Part shown: piece by piece, positions 2,416 through 58,221 of the stretch
Numbering within the stretch: the stretch's first letter is position 1
Layout: each line of letters starts with the position of its first letter
The notes under the pieces: model-generated
Databases searched by the model: none
What the model saw: only the letters and a program-made list of their open reading frames with translations
What the model was told of the DNA's origin: nothing
Position numbers and translations under genes: made by a program
Source: Candidatus Thalassarchaeaceae archaeon
GTDB taxonomy: Archaea; Thermoplasmatota; Poseidoniia; Poseidoniales; Thalassarchaeaceae
DNA length: 64,000 nt
Direction: 5' to 3'
Assembly (NCBI GenBank): GCA_023700245.1
Contig: JAJPRE010000003.1
Coordinates: 6,463 to 70,462 of the forward strand

Positions 2416-2522
2416 ACTAATGCGAGGGTAACTCCCACATCAACCCTATGACGGATATTGTAATCTATTAATTTGATTTTGTGGCGAATGCTCAAATGGT
2501 GTTTTTGATTCGGAGGTATATC

Positions 2523-2675
2523 GCCGGGGTGGCGTAGTTGGTAGCGCGTCGGACTCATAGGGTATTTTTTGTTGGAGATTCTATCTTCTACGAAACTAAC
2601 GATGAGCGTAACACAGCCCCTGAGAATGTCTGAGACATCCGAAGGTCGCGGGTTCAAGTCCCGCTCCCGGCACCA
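2523..2675 (+). tRNA. tRNA-Met (anticodon CAT; elongator type, or possibly Ile2-CAU) with a 77-nt intron at 2560..2636 and encoded CCA
   Basis: I folded the cloverleaf by hand. The acceptor is GCCGGGG/TCCCGGC, the D arm GCGT/GCGC, the anticodon stem TCGGA/TCCGA with loop CTCATA|A, and the T arm GCGGG-TTCAAGT-CCCGC, ending in ACCA. The intron sits at the canonical 37/38 position. The bulge-helix-bulge motif is clean: central helix CUCA/UGAG, two 3-nt bulges (UA|G and AC|A) and outer helix GGUAUU/AAUGUC. G1-C72 argues against an initiator tRNA. Confidence 0.9.
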
Positions 2676-11186: not shown

Positions 11187-11235
11187 GTTTATTCTTGGAA
11201 GGTTTGAAGTCTCACTTGTCTTGGGAGCGGAATAA

Positions 11236-11321: not shown

Positions 11322-12146
11322 TTATTTAGAAGATAAAATTTCCTTTTGAAGTACATGTAATTGAATAATCGCAGAAGTTGCCGAATCTAGTAAATCATCT
11401 AATTGTGCCCTGGAGTATGTAGCCTCTTCACCTGTCCCTTGAACTTCAACAAATTCTCCATCACTTGTCATGACTACGTTCATATCTACATCAGCGTTAC
11501 TATCTAATACGTAATCCAGATCTGTCCAGATTTGGTCATCCACTATTCCTACGCTGATTGCTGCAACATCATTGACGATAACGGTATTTTCATGTGTGAT
11601 TTTTTCTTCATCAGACAACAAAGGTGCGCTCCACCCATTCTTCAAATCTTCTTTAGTAGCTCTCAATTCAATTGGCAAACAGTCTCCAGATGAAATAAGC
11701 CTTCTTACTGCAAGCCGCATTGCTATACATGCCGCAGTAATTGAAGCACATCTTGTTCCTCCGTCAGCGTTGAGCACATCGCAATCAATTGTCAATGCAA
11801 TTGGTCCTAATGCTTCTAGATCTATAGCTCCCCTTAAGGACCTCGCAACTAATCTTTCTATTTCTTGAGTTCTGCCCTTTGCTCCACTCCTTTCTCTTCT
11901 AAATCTGGTATTTGTAGATCCGGGCAATAATGAATATTCTGCATGCACCCATCCTTTTTGAGAATCTCTTGGAAACCATCTAGGCAAAGACGGTGCCTTT
12001 GTGACGCAGACCAATATTGTTGTATTCCCTTGAGTATAAAGTACGGATGAAAGAGCATTAGGAGTAAAGTCCAATTCCACTTTTATTTTTCTAATTTCAT
12101 TCGTGCTTCTTGCGGCATTGATGCCGTCACCCTTCGTCTTTACCAT
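11322..12146 (-). CDS. rph: Ribonuclease PH, bacterial type, with an internal insertion
   Basis: GWVHAEYSLLPGSTNTRFRRE...GRTQEIERLVARSLR, DCDVLNADGGTRCASITAA and EVQGTGEEATYSRAQLDDLL match bacterial Rph signatures rather than archaeal Rrp41/42. Confidence 0.8.
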   Translation of the reverse strand: MVKTKGDGINAARSTNEIRKIKVELDFTPNALSSVLYTQGNTTILVCVTKAPSLPRWFPRDSQKGWVHAEYSLLPGSTNTRFRRERSGAKGRTQEIERLVARSLRGAIDLEALGPIALTIDCDVLNADGGTRCASITAACIAMRLAVRRLISSGDCLPIELRATKEDLKNGWSAPLLSDEEKITHENTVIVNDVAAISVGIVDDQIWTDLDYVLDSNADVDMNVVMTSDGEFVEVQGTGEEATYSRAQLDDLLDSATSAIIQLHVLQKEILSSK

Positions 12147-12209
12147 GCCTTCCGGTTGGCATATATCTCATGAATCATTCGTGTCAATAATTTAATTTTA
12201 TTTAATATT

Positions 12210-12611
12210 TCATGTATCATTTTTATTAAATGGAGGCCAATTACCTATGTAAAGAGCCATAAAAATTAATATTATTTGGATGCAAAGTCTTACAAAATGT
12301 TCCAAATTATTGAATTTTGCCCCTCCTATTGGAATATCATTGATCCACATATTTAAATTGGCCAAGTAAAGAATAATCAACAATAAAACTATTCCAAGAG
12401 ATGCAATTTTTTTATGTTCCTTGGATAATATTAAAATTCCAAGTAAAATTTCAAATATTCCGGATAAATATATCCAAAAACTGGGTCTACCTAAAATTTC
12501 AGGAACAATCGGCTCGAACCATTTAGTATCTAAAAAATGATTTATCCCAACTCCTACAAACATTAAACTAAAAATTACAGTAATAAAATTTTTAAAATTT
12601 ATCATCAGCAT
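12210..12611 (-). CDS. DoxX-like small integral membrane protein
   Basis: 133 aa with four predicted hydrophobic helices. The family assignment comes from size and topology only. Confidence 0.45.
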   Translation of the reverse strand: MLMINFKNFITVIFSLMFVGVGINHFLDTKWFEPIVPEILGRPSFWIYLSGIFEILLGILILSKEHKKIASLGIVLLLIILYLANLNMWINDIPIGGAKFNNLEHFVRLCIQIILIFMALYIGNWPPFNKNDT

Positions 12612-41338: not shown

Positions 41339-41413
41339 TGGTGCGCCCGCTGGGATTTGAACCCAGGACATGAGGTTGGAAACCTCAGGTGATAACCCCT
41401 TCACCACAGGCGC
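41339..41413 (-). tRNA. tRNA-Gly (TCC), CCA encoded
   Basis: The reverse complement folds as follows: acceptor GCGCCTG/CGGGCGC, D arm GTGA/TCAC, anticodon stem TGAGG/CCTCA with loop TTTCCAA, and T arm CTGGG-TTCAAAT-CCCAG. Confidence 0.95.
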
Positions 41414-52432: not shown

Positions 52433-53671
52433 TTGGACGGGAATATTTTTGAAAAAATTCTCGGTCAGGAAAGTCTGTTTACAGATAGAAAGGCATTCGA
52501 TCATGGGTTCGAACCTTCCCGACTCCCACATCGTGATCATGAAATAGGTTCGTTAGTTAAAAATCTAGTAGATGCATTGCAAGGGCATATACCTTCGAAT
52601 ATGCTACTATATGGGGTCCCTGGTGCCGGGAAGACTGTTGTTACAAGATATGTACTAAATCAATTAAGGGAGAAGGGATTGGAACTAAATCAGAATGTTA
52701 GTACTTATGAAGTAAACTGCAGAAGTGTAGATACTAAATATAGAGTCATCCAAAATATGGCATCTCAAATTTATGAACGCGGCGACCAAGTAATACCTTT
52801 TACTGGCTGGCCGACGGATAGAGTACTAGAAACTTTAATCCAGCGTATGGATAGAACAGGAGGAGTCCATATCATCGTTCTTGATGAGATTGATAACTTA
52901 GTATCTAGGGCCGGCGATAGCCTACTTTACAATCTTACAAATCTTAATACTAGGTTAACAAATGCTAGATGTTGCATGATAGGAATAAGTAATGATTTAA
53001 ATTTTACACAACAACTAGATCCAAGAGTAACTTCAAGATTAAGCCAAGAGGATATCGTATTTCACCCATATGGGGCATTAGAAATTGAAAATATTCTCTT
53101 AGAAAGGGTAGAAACAGGACTAAAAGGAGAAGTACTCAAACCAGGAGTAGTAGGCCTTTGTGCAGCTTTAGCTGCGCAAGAACATGGTGATGCCCGTAGA
53201 GCGCTAGACTTATTGCGAATATCAGTCCAAAAAGCTGAACAAAGTGCACAAAATAAGGTAGATACAAGACACGTAAAGATGGCTCAAAGCCAACTTGAAT
53301 ATGATCAAGTCACACCAGTATTGAGGACACTCCCTCTCCATCAAAAACTAGTACTTTTTTCCATATGTATCAATGAACAAAATGGTTTGAGAAATATATC
53401 TACTGGAGATATCTATAGAACTTATTCCGATGCTTGTATAAAAATACAAGTAGAAGCACTCACAACCCGTCGTGTTTCAACATTATTAAATGAACTTGAT
53501 ACATTAGGATTGATAATTGCTAGGAATGTTAGTAAAGGCCGTGGAGGAAGAAGCAAACAAGTTAACTCTGCAATACCCAAAGCAATAGATGCAATATCAT
53601 TAATGAGTGATAATGAGCCATTAGTAAATGAGGCAGCTTTGGGTAAATATAAACTACAATCTCAATTGTAG
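52433..53671 (+). CDS. cdc6: Orc1/Cdc6 replication initiator
   Basis: TTG start. LPHRDHEIGSL, Walker A GVPGAGKTV, Walker B IIVLDEIDNL and GDARRALDLLR (sensor 2), followed by a C-terminal winged helix. Confidence 0.93.
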   Translation: MDGNIFEKILGQESLFTDRKAFDHGFEPSRLPHRDHEIGSLVKNLVDALQGHIPSNMLLYGVPGAGKTVVTRYVLNQLREKGLELNQNVSTYEVNCRSVDTKYRVIQNMASQIYERGDQVIPFTGWPTDRVLETLIQRMDRTGGVHIIVLDEIDNLVSRAGDSLLYNLTNLNTRLTNARCCMIGISNDLNFTQQLDPRVTSRLSQEDIVFHPYGALEIENILLERVETGLKGEVLKPGVVGLCAALAAQEHGDARRALDLLRISVQKAEQSAQNKVDTRHVKMAQSQLEYDQVTPVLRTLPLHQKLVLFSICINEQNGLRNISTGDIYRTYSDACIKIQVEALTTRRVSTLLNELDTLGLIIARNVSKGRGGRSKQVNSAIPKAIDAISLMSDNEPLVNEAALGKYKLQSQL

Positions 53672-53724: not shown

Positions 53725-54267
53725 ATGAAAGGCGATGCTATTGAATGGAAATCTTCCTTGAAGAGGCCTAGTATGCCTCTATCGGTGTCTGCAATTGCCA
53801 TTGGCTCATGGGGAATAATTCTGTCTATTGTGAATCTTTCTATAGGTGCTTATTCTCCAGGTAGAAAGGCCCTATGGTCAGGATTTATATTAAAATCTCG
53901 AGATTCTAATACCATTAACTTTGAAATGGTTATCGATGATTTTATATTCTTGGGATTAGCAGTATCTCTTTGCATTATTGGTTTTTTGAGCATACAAAAA
54001 TCTGTCGCTAAGAGGCCAAAAGGTGATAGTGAAGATATTTCGATTTTTGTCCAAGGTAAAATAAAATCGTTTTTTAATAATCTAACAACGTTAGAAAAAG
54101 GTATGCCCAAGTTTATTTCAAGTTGGTTAATAAGCATTGGAATTATTTTTTATCTTGTATGGAGCATTAATTATAACACTTGGATAGATCCTGGAGTTTA
54201 TTCGGTAATGATTACATTTATTTCATTCGGAATAGGAATTTTCGTTTTGGATAGTTCAAAAAATTAA
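53725..54267 (+). CDS. Hypothetical integral membrane protein
   Basis: 180 aa with four hydrophobic helices and no recognised motif. Confidence 0.5.
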   Translation: MKGDAIEWKSSLKRPSMPLSVSAIAIGSWGIILSIVNLSIGAYSPGRKALWSGFILKSRDSNTINFEMVIDDFIFLGLAVSLCIIGFLSIQKSVAKRPKGDSEDISIFVQGKIKSFFNNLTTLEKGMPKFISSWLISIGIIFYLVWSINYNTWIDPGVYSVMITFISFGIGIFVLDSSKN

Positions 54268-55305
54268 TTATTTTTTAGAATCAAATTTTTCTATTATCAT
54301 TTTGCATCTTCTTTTCGTTTCTTCTTCCGTTATTCTGACAACAATTCCTTTTTTTGGTTGCCCATATATCACTACTGAGCCCAATGGTGCCAATAGGTGA
54401 ATTATTAAAGGAGCCAAATCTTCCTCTCCATCTATTGATACCAACGTTGTATTCTTATTATTTAACCATGAATTTATTGATTTTTTACATGCATTAAATA
54501 GTGCGGGTGTCAATTCTCCAGCCAAATTGTCGCATTTAATTATTTCATCATAATTATCAAATTTTATTTCCTCTGATTCTACCCATATTTTTCTCTTTGT
54601 TTTACCATCAATTAACGCTATGTCAGGAGGATAATTTAATCTTTCAAGAGTAAGTACAGATACGTCTCCAACTGCTATTAATGGTACATTCTCATTTCGA
54701 TATTTATTTATTGCAATTCTCATGGCATATTCGGGATTTTTTTCTGGACCGGAAATTAATTCTCCAAATGGTTTTTTTAAATCTCTGATAACTTCATCTG
54801 TTATATTCAAAATTTCTGAGTCCCAAATTGATATTTGATTATTTATAGTTACATTCCAAGGTTCACCCTCTCTGTTAATTTCTCCATTTCTTATTCTGGT
54901 ACTAGAAATTGGTAAATTATCCCATGCCTCGACGTGTCCTATTTCTATGATTTCCAGTTTTTCTAATGAATTCTTTAATCTAATTTCATTAATTTCGAGA
55001 CAAATTTTTCTTGTCTCGCTAGAGCATATTATTGCTGTTGCATCAATGTGGGTTGTGGCCGGGCCATGATCATCATTTAAAATGCCAAATGTAATTTTTT
55101 TTATTTGTTCATAATCTAAATTATCAATAATTTCATCTCTGCGAATTACCCAAGAGTTAGTTGTTGGATTATTTTTTTTTGCAATCTCATCAGATATTAT
55201 CCATATCTCTATTTTAATACATTTTAATAATGCATCATTTATCAACTTCTTATGGCCTAAATGAAATCTATCAAACGTACCGCCGATTAGGCCAACTTTA
55301 TGCAT
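54268..55305 (-). CDS. Fused phosphopantetheine adenylyltransferase (archaeal PPAT) / GTP-dependent dephospho-CoA kinase (DUF359)
   Basis: The N-terminal nucleotidyltransferase motif is GLIGGTFDRFHLGHKKL. The C-terminal half has VGDVSVLTL....PDIALIDGKTKR and IDGEEDLAPL...APLGSVVIYGQPKKGIVV, typical of DUF359/DPCK. The start is set at Met-20 of the listed ORF, because the upstream 57 nt belong to the GC-rich structured island. Confidence 0.75.
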   Translation of the reverse strand: MHKVGLIGGTFDRFHLGHKKLINDALLKCIKIEIWIISDEIAKKNNPTTNSWVIRRDEIIDNLDYEQIKKITFGILNDDHGPATTHIDATAIICSSETRKICLEINEIRLKNSLEKLEIIEIGHVEAWDNLPISSTRIRNGEINREGEPWNVTINNQISIWDSEILNITDEVIRDLKKPFGELISGPEKNPEYAMRIAINKYRNENVPLIAVGDVSVLTLERLNYPPDIALIDGKTKRKIWVESEEIKFDNYDEIIKCDNLAGELTPALFNACKKSINSWLNNKNTTLVSIDGEEDLAPLIIHLLAPLGSVVIYGQPKKGIVVRITEEETKRRCKMIIEKFDSKK

Positions 55306-55332: not shown

Positions 55333-55620
55333 TGTGCCCCGGGGTGTAACGGTCACCTTCATCGCGTTGGCTCTGGCGCCTGACCCACCCCGGGACGTCT
55401 GTCGAACTGTGTGGTAGTCCCTTGATTCATTCCTTTCAGTCCTCTGGGGACCTTTTCACAATCCGGCCACTTGTTTTGCGCCACAAATCATCCCGTTAGG
55501 TCATCGTGGTCTTCGACAAATGGTTTCCCATAACGTGGTACCGTAAATCATCCTAAGTCTCCGGCGTGGTGACCTCGTCGTTACGGTGTTGCCGCTTGGG
55601 CAAATTACGGTCCATGCATG
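55333..55620 (-). ncRNA. Candidate structured non-coding RNA (GC-rich island); family unresolved, minus-strand orientation favoured
   Basis: No listed ORF lies in this interval on any frame, apart from the first 30 nt of the extended 54268..55362 ORF, which I reject as coding. GC content is clearly higher than the flanks. Hand-found helices are CCCGGGGTG(55338-46)/CACCCCGGG(55386-94), GGTCA(55351-55)/TGACC(55381-85), ACCGTAA(55540-46)/TTACGGT(55605-11), TTGCC(55589-93)/GGCAA(55599-603), and a minus-strand AUGG-GAAA-CCAU hairpin (55520-31). GGAUU/GGUCC (55448-64) pairs fully only on the minus strand, via G-U pairs. There are four minus-strand GAUGA motifs, and ACA trinucleotides follow two of the stems. 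Confidence 0.55.
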
Positions 55621-55671
55621 TACTTGAAGAACATCTCGGTTTATTTTACGTTATTTTGATAATTTTATGCA

Positions 55672-58221
55672 CTACTTATTAAATCCAGAACTTCTTATGA
55701 TTAATCTATTCATGATTTCTGAATTTCCATTTGATATCTCATTTTTTGAAAAATTTGGCCATCTCCCTATCGGTTGAGCTAACCAACCTACTAATTCATG
55801 GGACCTACCTCTTTTTGGGATAATGTTGTTAATTGAGCATTCTAATGCCTCATATAAGTCGATAACTGAATCACTTTCAAAATTGTTTTTTTCCTTAGTC
55901 AAATCCTTTATTATTGAATAGTCACATCCCGGATGCAGCATAGCCGAAACTCCAGGGGCATTATTTCTTTCACCCTCTGGTCTCAAAATTACTGCAGACC
56001 AAGGTAAATCCATCTTTAACATCCATTTCATCTTATCACTATTCAATGCTTCTTTTAATAACTTATGAGATACTATTGCCCACCAATCAATTGGCATTTC
56101 AAAGAGTATTAACTCTAAATCTTCTCTACTCAATTTCTTATCTTCTAATATTAAGTCTATCATATTGGACCATATCTTAAATTCATTATTTGGATTAAGC
56201 GTTAGATTTTTATTTTTCAATTTAATCATCATTTGATCTACGACGCTCCTCTGTTGAAATTTCCTCATATAAAGCCAATAAATTCCCTTGATTGCTGGAA
56301 GTGAATTAAGAGGGGGATTCACTATCCATGCATTTATGGCCCAATCTCTCATATCTTCATGCATCGAATCGGGCATCCAAGCAGCGTTAGCAAGGAATTG
56401 TGCCGCTAACCATGATACTCCTTTTGATGCATCTATGGAATCAATTGCAGGCCTTGATCTGAGAAAAATATCTGGATCTTCTCTTAATTTTTTTTTCATT
56501 GCTTCTGAAAGAATTTTTAATACAGAAGACGGCGCTTCATTGGCAACTTCAATAACTTTTTCAATTGGTAGATAGTTTAAATCAAGTAATGCCAACCATT
56601 CAGGATCAAGCCTATTCCTCAATCTTTGCCATCTTGGCCATCTCATTATTGGTGGTGATGATATCCAAGATGCCAATGGGTATCTTGCTTCTACTTGATT
56701 TGCCCATTCTTCATCGCCAAGTGGATACTGGGAAATTGATGATTTAATTATCGAAAAATATTCATCATCTAAATCCTGCGGAATAAATTCATTTTTAATA
56801 TCGATGCCCATTATTTTCCAAGGAGTTATCGAAATTTTATTTAACAAATCATCCTGATTACTTTGATATTTACTTTCTATTAATTTTAATGGAATTTCGC
56901 CTTCTTTAGTTGAGTAATTTAACCAAGGAAGTGGTCTAAATTGGCCAATATCTAACTTATCATAGCTTTCAAATTGGGATATTTGTTTTTCTATTATTAT
57001 TAGCCGTACATTCGGATGCGATTCTATTAATGACAAAGTCCTTTCAGATAAATCTATTTTTATATCAAGAACTAAGGGCATTCTACTTTCATGTTTTATT
57101 GACCAATTAATTAGAGATTCAATTGAATTTTTCTTTATTCCTCTCACATCTATATTCTTAGAATATTCATCCTTAGAGAAATTACTAACTCCCCAATCTT
57201 TCCTGAATTTTCTCCATGTTGAATCTGAAACTCTAATTTGTCTATTTTTTGTTACTTTATCTTTTAATGCAACAAGTCTCTTCTTTCGCTCTTGAATAGA
57301 TATCCTGGGATGAGATAACTCTATCCAATAGTCAAGTGAATCTAGGGGATACGTCGTATCTTCTGGTTCTAAGCCTCTTAAATCTCCAATCAATAATGCA
57401 TTTGGTTTTGCTGTTCTTAGTAACATCGACTTATACAGGCTGTCCGTTAAAATTCCAACAATTGGTTCCTTTGGCCTAATTCTGGGAATCATACTGTGGC
57501 ATTCTCCAAGCGTCCAAATACCCCGATGATAGGAGCTCTCTGTAAGGGGAGATCTTGGTTTTTCCTTAGAATGATTAAACCATTTTCCCATGGAAGATGA
57601 TGTTGTCACTTTATCATTCAATATTTTTCCCCTGATTATTCCTATTATCTGTGGCTTCTCAATGTAGGAATCAATGCTCTCAGGATTTAGATTTTTAGGT
57701 TCCACATTGCTTATTTGCATAGTATCTAAATTAAACCAGCGCAAACTGCCTTCATTTAATGTAGCCCAGTGCCATAATGCCCCTTCGTTTCCACTGGAAT
57801 CAGGTAATCTATCTGGGATCATAATCATGGGGGTTTTCGGACGATTTAGAAATGTAAAAAGAATATCAGTTCCTTCTCTATAAATTATGCTATATTTTTT
57901 AGTATCATTAGGCAATGGTAAGGCTACCAATGCCCTAGCCCATTCATCAGAATATAGTGAATTCCATCCTGATGGAGTTAAGCTAATCTTAGCACCTCTT
58001 GTCCCAGTAATCAAGTCACTGGAAACAAGTCCCTCATCTCGCATTTTTCTTATTTCGGCTGAAGCATGAGGTACCCTTAAATCTACTAAATCCGCCAATT
58101 TACTAACTGTTTCTTCTTTTTCGGAAAGCCTAATCATCAATCTTAAACGATGCTTACTTCTGATACTTTTTGGTGTAATTATTTCATCTCCTGTTGAGAT
58201 GTTACCGAAATGATTTGACAC
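55672..58221 (-). CDS. Large (849 aa) protein with an N-terminal winged helix-turn-helix; the remainder has no recognisable family
   Basis: GTG start with GAGGAG 8 nt upstream. Residues ~25-85 (LRLMIRLSEKEETVSKLADLVDLRVPHASAEIRKMRDEGLVSS....GAKISLTPSG) look like an ArsR/MarR-type wHTH. The rest is Trp-rich, with no motif I recognise. Confidence 0.6.
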   Translation of the reverse strand: MSNHFGNISTGDEIITPKSIRSKHRLRLMIRLSEKEETVSKLADLVDLRVPHASAEIRKMRDEGLVSSDLITGTRGAKISLTPSGWNSLYSDEWARALVALPLPNDTKKYSIIYREGTDILFTFLNRPKTPMIMIPDRLPDSSGNEGALWHWATLNEGSLRWFNLDTMQISNVEPKNLNPESIDSYIEKPQIIGIIRGKILNDKVTTSSSMGKWFNHSKEKPRSPLTESSYHRGIWTLGECHSMIPRIRPKEPIVGILTDSLYKSMLLRTAKPNALLIGDLRGLEPEDTTYPLDSLDYWIELSHPRISIQERKKRLVALKDKVTKNRQIRVSDSTWRKFRKDWGVSNFSKDEYSKNIDVRGIKKNSIESLINWSIKHESRMPLVLDIKIDLSERTLSLIESHPNVRLIIIEKQISQFESYDKLDIGQFRPLPWLNYSTKEGEIPLKLIESKYQSNQDDLLNKISITPWKIMGIDIKNEFIPQDLDDEYFSIIKSSISQYPLGDEEWANQVEARYPLASWISSPPIMRWPRWQRLRNRLDPEWLALLDLNYLPIEKVIEVANEAPSSVLKILSEAMKKKLREDPDIFLRSRPAIDSIDASKGVSWLAAQFLANAAWMPDSMHEDMRDWAINAWIVNPPLNSLPAIKGIYWLYMRKFQQRSVVDQMMIKLKNKNLTLNPNNEFKIWSNMIDLILEDKKLSREDLELILFEMPIDWWAIVSHKLLKEALNSDKMKWMLKMDLPWSAVILRPEGERNNAPGVSAMLHPGCDYSIIKDLTKEKNNFESDSVIDLYEALECSINNIIPKRGRSHELVGWLAQPIGRWPNFSKNEISNGNSEIMNRLIIRSSGFNK

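Follow-up and report, generated by a model that had tools for sequence, protein, structure and literature searches.

A probable four-hairpin box H/ACA guide sRNA encoded by Marine Group II archaea

Archaeal box H/ACA small RNAs (sRNAs) carry one to three hairpins according to reviews and a 2024 survey (PMC7075261; PMC11077068). Their published rules include a lower stem of 7-9 bp, a distance of 14-16 nt from the ACA box to the upper stem, and a GA stem of 8-11 pairs (PMC4652768). Among the closest described systems, motif 1 of Pab40 has an experimentally validated target at position 2588 of Pyrococcus abyssi 23S ribosomal RNA (rRNA), and motif 3 targets helix 69 (PMC2377435). The ACA box is dispensable in typical guide reactions, as found by mutagenesis in Haloferax and in earlier work on Pab91 (PMC7075261). 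Here we describe an element at 55333..55601 on the minus strand of a 64,000-nucleotide stretch (contig JAJPRE010000003.1 of Candidatus Thalassarchaeaceae; hereafter the window), which very probably encodes a box H/ACA guide sRNA of a Marine Group II archaeon. This group, which has yet to be cultured, ranks among the most abundant archaea of the plankton. A literature search returned no description of Marine Group II small RNAs, and the RNA described here would be the first H/ACA guide RNA for this group.

The RNA is new for its lineage and absent from Rfam and from the searched literature; it is a structural variant and not categorically new. An earlier note on this DNA, made from the sequence alone, had left open that the region might be something undescribed. 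That holds insofar as no description was found and the predicted structure departs from the classic architecture in two ways, in having four hairpins and in having two ACA-less hairpins that keep the lower stem; it does not hold for the class itself, which is known.

Conservation and fold of the RNA

The window belongs to Marine Group II archaea (Candidatus Thalassarchaeaceae), as judged from a PPAT-like protein encoded beside the RNA; homologues of this protein, 44-64% identical, are found with an unchanged gene order on each of the contigs that we inspected. We built an nhmmer profile on the six first homologues of the RNA and ran it over 88 fetched loci. All of the syntenic loci with sufficient upstream DNA, 73 of the 88, proved to carry the complete sRNA at the same position, and the window contains a single copy (profile match 55640-55333, minus strand). 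The 67 distinct sequences obtained are 70-99% identical to the window copy, and the sRNA is far better conserved than the neighbouring protein-coding DNA, with conservation dropping off abruptly just past the 3' ACA. Base composition also sets the element apart: positions 55333-55602 have the richest G+C content among all 270-nt segments of the 64 kb (0.556 compared to a mean of 0.359; z = 4.8), and the value rises from about 0.30 in the flanks to 0.48-0.55 across this island. Stops or frameshifts disrupt the sole open reading frame (ORF) inside the island, 41 amino acids long at 55359..55484 on the minus strand, in nearly all homologues; we therefore rejected it as coding and conclude that the island is non-coding.

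On the minus strand, the RNA is predicted to fold as four consecutive hairpins, A to D. We tested a hand-built model of 71 pairs on an alignment of 38 sequences (A3), where partners slid by 1-3 columns and 500 shuffles served as controls. Standard pairs occupied 94.3% of cells, compared to 33-44% in the slid controls, changes on both sides were seen in 24 pairs compared to 2-6, and the covariation score was 0.227 compared to 0.02-0.05. None of the 500 shuffles matched any observed measure of pairing or covariation. RNAalifold, run independently on A3, predicted nearly the same fold, with four hairpins and 67 pairs, of which 25 show compensatory changes, and an unbiased scan of mutual information recovered the same helices plus short covarying C-stems in the apices of B and D. 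G.U pairs account for 224 of 2690 pair cells, and pairing falls from 94.3% to 85.9% if the alignment is read as plus-strand RNA, which implies that the RNA is encoded on the minus strand.

By contrast with the covarying stems, several segments do not change at all. The GA and UGA of the kink-turns (K-turns) of A-D and both ACA boxes are invariant in 38 of 38 sequences, as are the pocket strands of hairpins A (GCAAC / ACCA), B (CGAAGA / GCAA) and D (GGUCA / GUUA). Invariant K-turns, ACA boxes and pockets amid covarying stems are the signature of a guide RNA.

These results bear out much of the earlier note, which had proposed a GC-rich, non-coding island with a minus-strand transcript. It had also pointed to four GAUGA motifs (plus-strand positions 55359, 55488, 55501 and 55548), all of which are present, two of them within RGGAUGAUUU units 60 nt apart, and to a stem directly followed by ACA at 55335-55333; this stem covaries over 11 bp (55396-55386 / 55346-55336), and its ACA is invariant. 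The compensatory changes found by RNAalifold answer the note's call to fold homologues, and the helices of A-D proved conserved. Its other local helices fared less well. A GAAA-tetraloop hairpin at 55520-31, a 5-bp hairpin at 55589-603 and a helix at 55448-64 can each be drawn in this one sequence, but their nucleotides fall in the lower stems of A, B and C, which covary across the 38 homologues. The second ACA had been placed at about 55409-13, within what is now a strand of hairpin C's lower stem, whereas the conserved box occupies 55402-55400. A long-range ACCGUAA/UUACGGU helix was correct in its 3' arm (55546-55540) and mistaken in its 5' arm. The partner that covaries is a second ACCGUAA at 55587-55581, which encloses 34 nt and not about 60, and the upstream copy is already mutated in a close relative (L002). 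Finally, the 5' limit of the element, drawn at 55620, probably lies near 55601.

Hairpin anatomy and predicted rRNA targets

Each hairpin consists of a lower stem, an internal loop that would form the pocket, an upper stem, and a K-turn, in which a 5' GA and a 3' NNU-GA flank a short C-stem-loop. The GA stem has 10 pairs in A, 9-10 in B, 10 in the open form of C, and 9 in D, all within the published range of 8-11. The ACA-to-upper-stem distance is 15 nt in D, and 16 nt in C if its outer three pairs open; in A and B, 12-14 nt separate the upper stem from the 3' end of the lower stem, as in classic motifs. The earlier note's suggestion of a multi-hairpin H/ACA-like RNA with L7Ae-type K-turns is thus upheld by four covarying hairpins with invariant K-turns and pockets, by two canonical ACA boxes, and by two pockets whose best sites are known archaeal pseudouridylation sites.

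By analogy with characterised archaeal H/ACA ribonucleoproteins, L7Ae would bind each K-turn, placed 9-10 "pairs" above a pseudouridylation pocket enclosed by the lower and upper stems, and Cbf5-Nop10-Gar1 would bind the lower stem and, in the hairpins that have it, the ACA box. Base pairing of both pocket strands with the rRNA that flanks a target U-N would then place the U in the active site of Cbf5 for isomerisation to pseudouridine. In this scheme, hairpins A and B would presumably be ACA-independent guide units. We scanned for targets in a real Haloarcula marismortui rRNA operon (a 6.6-kb locus from a plasmid record), which is heterologous to this lineage. Extending 10 kb past either end of the window revealed protein genes only and no rRNA, and two scans of viral contigs for archaeal-type 23S motifs returned nothing, or a eukaryotic fragment only.

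Hairpin D (55333..55396, minus strand) has an 11-bp lower stem (GUCCCGGGGUG 55396-55386 / CACCCCGGGGC 55346-55336), a pocket (GGUCA 55385-55381 / GUUA 55350-55347), an upper stem with one nucleotide bulged (GGCGCC 55380-55375 / GGUGACC 55357-55351), a K-turn (GA 55373-55372, GAU-GA 55363-55359) and an ACA box (55335-55333). Its stems covary (for example C-G, U-A and A-U at columns 290/315), whereas its pocket, K-turn and ACA are invariant. The best site for this hairpin in the Haloarcula rRNA is 23S helix 69, GGGGGUAAC[UA]UGACCC, with 11 contiguous pairs in a strict scan. In a relaxed scan, helix 69 scored 38, whereas the highest of 60 shuffles reached 36 and the second-best real site 27. The unpaired U at this site corresponds to Escherichia coli U1915, one of the two nearly universal pseudouridines of helix 69. 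We consider it likely, from this complementarity, that hairpin D targets helix 69 at E. coli U1915; U1917 is possibly also a target.

Hairpin B (55467..55523, minus strand) has an 8-bp lower stem (CCAUUUGU 55523-55516 / ACAAGUGG 55474-55467), a pocket (CGAAGA 55515-55510 / CGCAAA 55480-55475), an upper stem (CCACGAU 55509-55503 / UUUGUGG 55487-55481) and a K-turn (GA 55502-55501, GAU-GA 55492-55488) around a CC/GG C-stem (55500-55499 / 55494-55493). Changes on both sides affect 4 of 8 pairs in the lower stem and 5 of 6 pairs in the upper stem, and the C-stem covaries too. The best real site for hairpin B is GGCUUGC[UA]CCUCGAUG, in which the U is E. coli 2496. From the correspondences of Pab35, RluE, RluC and RluB, the numbering of P. 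abyssi exceeds that of E. coli by 92 in domain V (Muller et al. 2008, PMC2377435); E. coli 2496 is therefore P. abyssi 2588, at which motif 1 of Pab40 has its validated target. This positional agreement, on one specific U among the uridines of the 6.6-kb locus, is the real evidence for the target of hairpin B, and on balance we favour the equivalent of E. coli 2496 as its predicted site.

Hairpin C (55400..55465, minus strand) has a 9-bp lower stem (CGGAUUGUG 55465-55457 / CACAGUUCG 55411-55403) in which 4 pairs change on both sides, the invariant segments GGUCCC (55452-55447) and GGGACU (55421-55416), a K-turn (GA 55441-55440, AAU-GA 55431-55427) around a GAAA-capped C-stem (55439-55432), and an invariant ACA box (55402-55400). 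Two candidate sites can be named. The first is E. coli 804 in 16S rRNA, GGGUAG-U-C, which is conserved and equals yeast psi-999 and Sulfolobus islandicus U747; the second is E. coli 2586 in 23S rRNA, GGGU(U)-U-A-GACC, a site predicted for motif 2 of Pf7 and Afu4. Some relatives vary within this hairpin. A clade of three loci (L080, L070, L084) has a 12-nt insertion in the C-stem-loop at the apex (A3 columns 222-233), for example GAACGGAAGAGAC. A wider clade (the same three plus L087 and L034) has ACAACC in place of ACUACC in the 3' strand; this variant would fit the 23S E. coli-2586 site perfectly and may reflect a switch of target specificity. In another clade (L040, L071, L045, L055), the alternative helix GGAUU/GGUCC (55464-55448) becomes GGACC/GGUCC, with a gain of two G-C pairs, and one of these changes makes a C.A mismatch in the lower stem of hairpin C; there may be a conformer that sequesters the 5' guide strand of hairpin C.

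Hairpin A (55527..55600, minus strand) has an 8-bp lower stem (CCCAAGCG 55600-55593 / CGUUAUGGG 55535-55527), a pocket (GCAAC 55592-55588 / ACCA 55539-55536), an upper stem (ACCGUAA 55587-55581 / UUACGGU 55546-55540) and a K-turn (GA 55579-55578, UGA 55550-55548) with its C-stem and loop at 55577-55553. Both stems covary, as in the exchange of G-C for U-A at columns 51/110 and of A-U for G-C at 47/115, and the pocket and K-turn are invariant.

Several observations weigh against the assignment to box H/ACA guides or against the roles of particular hairpins. The ACA box, which defines the classic motif, is missing from two of the four hairpins, A and B. The target search that the earlier note had suggested, which placed D at helix 69 and B at E. 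coli 2496, gave hairpins A and C no site above shuffles in H. marismortui rRNA. The hairpin B site in this rRNA has an A.C mismatch, and its score is within that of the shuffles because the guide reads CGAAG and haloarchaeal rRNA needs CGAGG; Marine Group II 23S rRNA is predicted to read UUGC-U-N-CUUCGAUG, with U and not C at E. coli 2499, matching the guide. Yeast has a U at this position. Hairpin C has a small pocket, and its working conformation is uncertain because the 5' strand of the pocket varies and the conserved GGUCCC/GGGACU never covaries. In a permissive Rfam search, hairpins B, C and D align in order to motifs 1, 2 and 3 of HgcG/Pab40 (RF00064) at 17.8 bits (E = 0.0079 for a 551-nt search), which is far under the gathering score of 77, and the match was not repeated in a divergent homologue (L006) or in a pooled search of 12 loci; we therefore rejected membership of RF00064. 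Finally, the strand and ends of the RNA are deduced from the sequence.

The status of A and B separates two readings of the array. Hairpin A is followed by a 3-nt linker (AAA, 55526-55524) that varies among homologues (AAA, UGA, UCA, UAG and others), and a lone C (55466) is the whole linker between B and C; neither contains an ACA or ANA box. Since typical guide reactions can proceed when the ACA is mutated, A and B are plausible guide units, and the chances that they are active appear evenly balanced. A tentative extension of the guide reading is that the RNA represents an undescribed architecture, a four-unit tandem array in which the two 5' units are naturally ACA-independent, keep a full lower stem and lie just 1-3 nt from the units next to them. 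Such spacing would imply coaxial stacking and possibly the cooperative assembly of four Cbf5 modules on a single RNA, and at least hairpin A (GCAAC/ACCA) may guide a pseudouridine at a site new to archaea or in a non-rRNA target.

It is unlikely that only C and D, or only D, are working guides and that A and B are K-turn hairpins that have degenerated or play a non-catalytic part, perhaps as scaffolds or as chaperone-like antisense elements, bound by L7Ae but, for want of an ACA, not productively by Cbf5. The variable linker after A, the single nucleotide after B and the missing target for A would fit such a role, and Cbf5 loses stable binding to ACA-mutant guides in gel shifts (PMC7075261). 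However, the pockets of A and B are invariant amid covarying stems, as would be expected if they served as guides, their 12-14-nt spacing is classic, and the best rRNA site of hairpin B is a validated pseudouridylation site. [quoted passage not shown]

Ends of the RNA and neighbouring genes

The mature sRNA is predicted to be about 269 nt long, from a 5' end that we infer near 55601 through hairpins A-D to the 3' ACA at 55333. Conservation starts at 55640 with ACCGAG-N3-GUUCUUCAAG; about 22 nt that are variable in sequence and nearly fixed in length follow, and a nearly invariant U-G-CCC opens hairpin A. The promoter-like block lies a constant 30-31 nt from hairpin A and contains a B recognition element (BRE)-like CCGAG (55639-55635) and a TATA-like GUUCUUCAAG (55632-55623), which together form a putative promoter (55623..55639, minus strand). 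The transfer RNA (tRNA) gene at 41413 (minus strand) has ACCGAATTGGTTTTGAAAG upstream of its mature 5' end, at the same distance as the block from hairpin A; related boxes, T-rich...GAA(A)G or CTCAAAT, precede the remaining two tRNA genes by 25-35 nt. In the variable spacer, we found no consistent single-sequence fold and no covarying partner by mutual information. Because the tRNA genes carry similar boxes at like distances and the spacer shows no fold, we lean towards a BRE/TATA-type promoter at 55639-55623, from which the sRNA would be transcribed with a start near 55601; this position coincides with the edge of the GC island. The alternative is that the block belongs to a transcribed 5' leader. 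An additional 5' hairpin upstream of A ("H0") was rejected, since its folds were inconsistent and mutual information gave it no Watson-Crick partner. Regular-expression scans for the block in related loci and in the window were uninformative, since the motif is too degenerate and the window AT-rich, and a scan for sigma-70 promoters and intrinsic terminators was empty; such signals do not apply to archaea.

The three tRNA genes and hairpin A share a box 25-38 nt upstream, at 41446-41428 (minus strand), 11201-11209 (plus strand), about 2490-2500 (plus strand) and 55639-55623 (minus strand). Its forms (ACCGA-N-GGTTTTGAAAG, GGTTTGAAG and GCGAATGCTCAAATGG) differ from the textbook TTTATATA, and it is possibly the BRE/TATA promoter consensus of this lineage. 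One of these genes, the tRNA gene at 2523-2672 (plus strand; Rfam tRNA, 56.5 bits), has a 79-nt intron in the anticodon loop region, which is typical of archaea.

Both genes that flank the sRNA are on the minus strand. The gene directly upstream in all loci (55672..58221) encodes an 849-amino-acid protein without a confident Pfam domain; one homologue shows a weak HTH_5 match near its N-terminus. Downstream lies the gene for the PPAT/DUF359 protein of the coenzyme A pathway, with its ATG at 55305, 27 nt from the ACA in the window and 27-46 nt in relatives. Many relatives have a CTCAAAG-like box (CTCAA(A/G)(A/G)C) about 28-31 nt before this ATG, with a GGNGG purine run just upstream of it, and in some, T-runs come right after the ACA. 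These features suggest that the downstream gene has a separate messenger RNA, possibly a leaderless one; co-transcription with the sRNA is the alternative.

The position of the RNA, always directly upstream of the PPAT/DUF359 gene and on the same strand, could indicate a cis-acting 5' leader of that gene, protein-binding or riboswitch-like, instead of a guide that acts in trans. We consider this very unlikely. The anatomy is that of H/ACA RNAs (four K-turn hairpins with pockets, ACA at 15-16 nt, and the helix 69 match), conservation is lost abruptly right after the ACA, relatives have the promoter-like box before the ATG and, in some cases, T-runs after the ACA, and no riboswitch family of Rfam matched the region. 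Still less probable is another K-turn RNA (box C/D or composite C/D-H/ACA) or a very divergent signal recognition particle (SRP) or RNase P RNA, the last two of which the earlier note had considered; the GAUGA motifs resembling box C, one CUGA (55439-55436) and the suitable size would favour such readings. However, the Rfam search proposed in that note gave only three tRNAs at the gathering score in the whole 64-kb window, no C/D, SRP or RNase P model reached threshold in the region even with permissive filters, the GA motifs are embedded in upper stems and oriented as in the K-turns of H/ACA RNAs, not placed as terminal C (RUGAUGA) and D (CUGA) boxes flanking 10-12-nt guides, and the covarying structure is four independent hairpins and not an SRP or RNase P fold.

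Farther from the sRNA, a Cdc6/Orc1 gene lies about 1.6 kb away (52433-53671, plus strand). An inverted repeat, CCGAGAATTTTTTCAAAAATATTCCCG (52438-52464), overlaps its annotated start and is kept in three close relatives (L001, L002, L004), and the cumulative GC skew has its maximum near 54200. Together, the gene, repeat and skew peak may point to an origin of replication or to a divergent promoter. At 12021-12562 of locus L094, which corresponds to about 58.4-59.0 kb of the window, two tandem genes for DUF3860 proteins of 86 amino acids lie upstream of the 849-amino-acid gene and adjoin genes for fructose-bisphosphate aldolase and FBPase (glpX).

Comparison with known guide RNAs

The pseudouridines predicted for hairpins D and B lie at two functionally central sites of 23S rRNA, helix 69 and the peptidyl-transferase region. 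Guidance of helix 69 modification is also known from eukaryotes, in which yeast snR191 is the H/ACA guide for the two conserved pseudouridines in GUAAC-psi-A-psi-GAC; unlike the RNA described here, snR191 is a snoRNA of two hairpins that lacks a K-turn and carries both an H and an ACA box. A nearer likeness is sR-h45 of Haloferax volcanii, a euryarchaeal H/ACA sRNA whose stem-loop 2 (SL2) guides helix 69 modification (E. coli 1915/1917) and whose SL1 tolerates mutation or deletion of its ACA-type box (PMC7075261). However, sR-h45 consists of two hairpins joined by a linker of 56 nt and each followed by an AUA or ACA box, and its second target is 2605 (H. volcanii numbering) and not the equivalent of E. 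coli 2496.

Natural ACA-less guides are represented by the atypical RNAs of Pyrobaculum and S. islandicus, which depend on the K-turn and L7Ae and on Gar1 (PMC11077068; PMC4652768). These RNAs are single K-turn hairpins without a lower stem and with free 5' and 3' guide strands, known only in Crenarchaeota, whereas hairpins A and B keep a covarying 8-bp lower stem and stand in a tandem array in a euryarchaeon. Their 8-bp covarying lower stems led us to reject assignment of A and B to the atypical H/ACA-like class. The form of A and B, with the lower stem kept and the ACA lost, is instead intermediate between classic motifs and the stem-less, ACA-less crenarchaeal guides. If A and B are active, they would provide natural evidence that the ACA box is dispensable within a multi-hairpin array, and, were the undescribed architecture proposed above correct, ACA-less H/ACA function would no longer be confined to Crenarchaeota but would occur, in a structurally intermediate form, in Euryarchaeota too. 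A covariance model built on the 67 aligned sequences could help to find such RNAs in further uncultured Thermoplasmatota.

The nearest described RNAs are Pab40, Pf7, Pho40 and Afu4 of Pyrococcus and Archaeoglobus, which are multi-hairpin euryarchaeal H/ACA sRNAs with a matching order of units. The pocket of Pab40 motif 1, CGAGG(A) / GCGA, resembles that of hairpin B, CGAAG(A) / GCAA, and both are directed to the same 23S position by validation and by best site, respectively. Likewise, the pocket of Pab40 motif 3 (GGUUA / GUUAC) resembles that of hairpin D (GGUCA / GUUAC), and both fit helix 69, and the middle unit of Pab40 and hairpin C have GGUCCCC...GGG..ACC in common and are structurally ambiguous in both RNAs. 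In contrast to Pab40, which has an ACA after each motif, hairpin B has none; the RNA described here also has the extra hairpin A, a longer lower stem in hairpin D (11 bp), and K-turns with short C-stems in place of K-loops. Because the order of units, the two predicted targets, the pocket sequences and the ambiguous middle unit agree, we conclude that B-C-D is probably the Marine Group II counterpart of the three-motif Pab40/Pf7/Afu4 RNA, to which hairpin A is added as an extra 5' unit.

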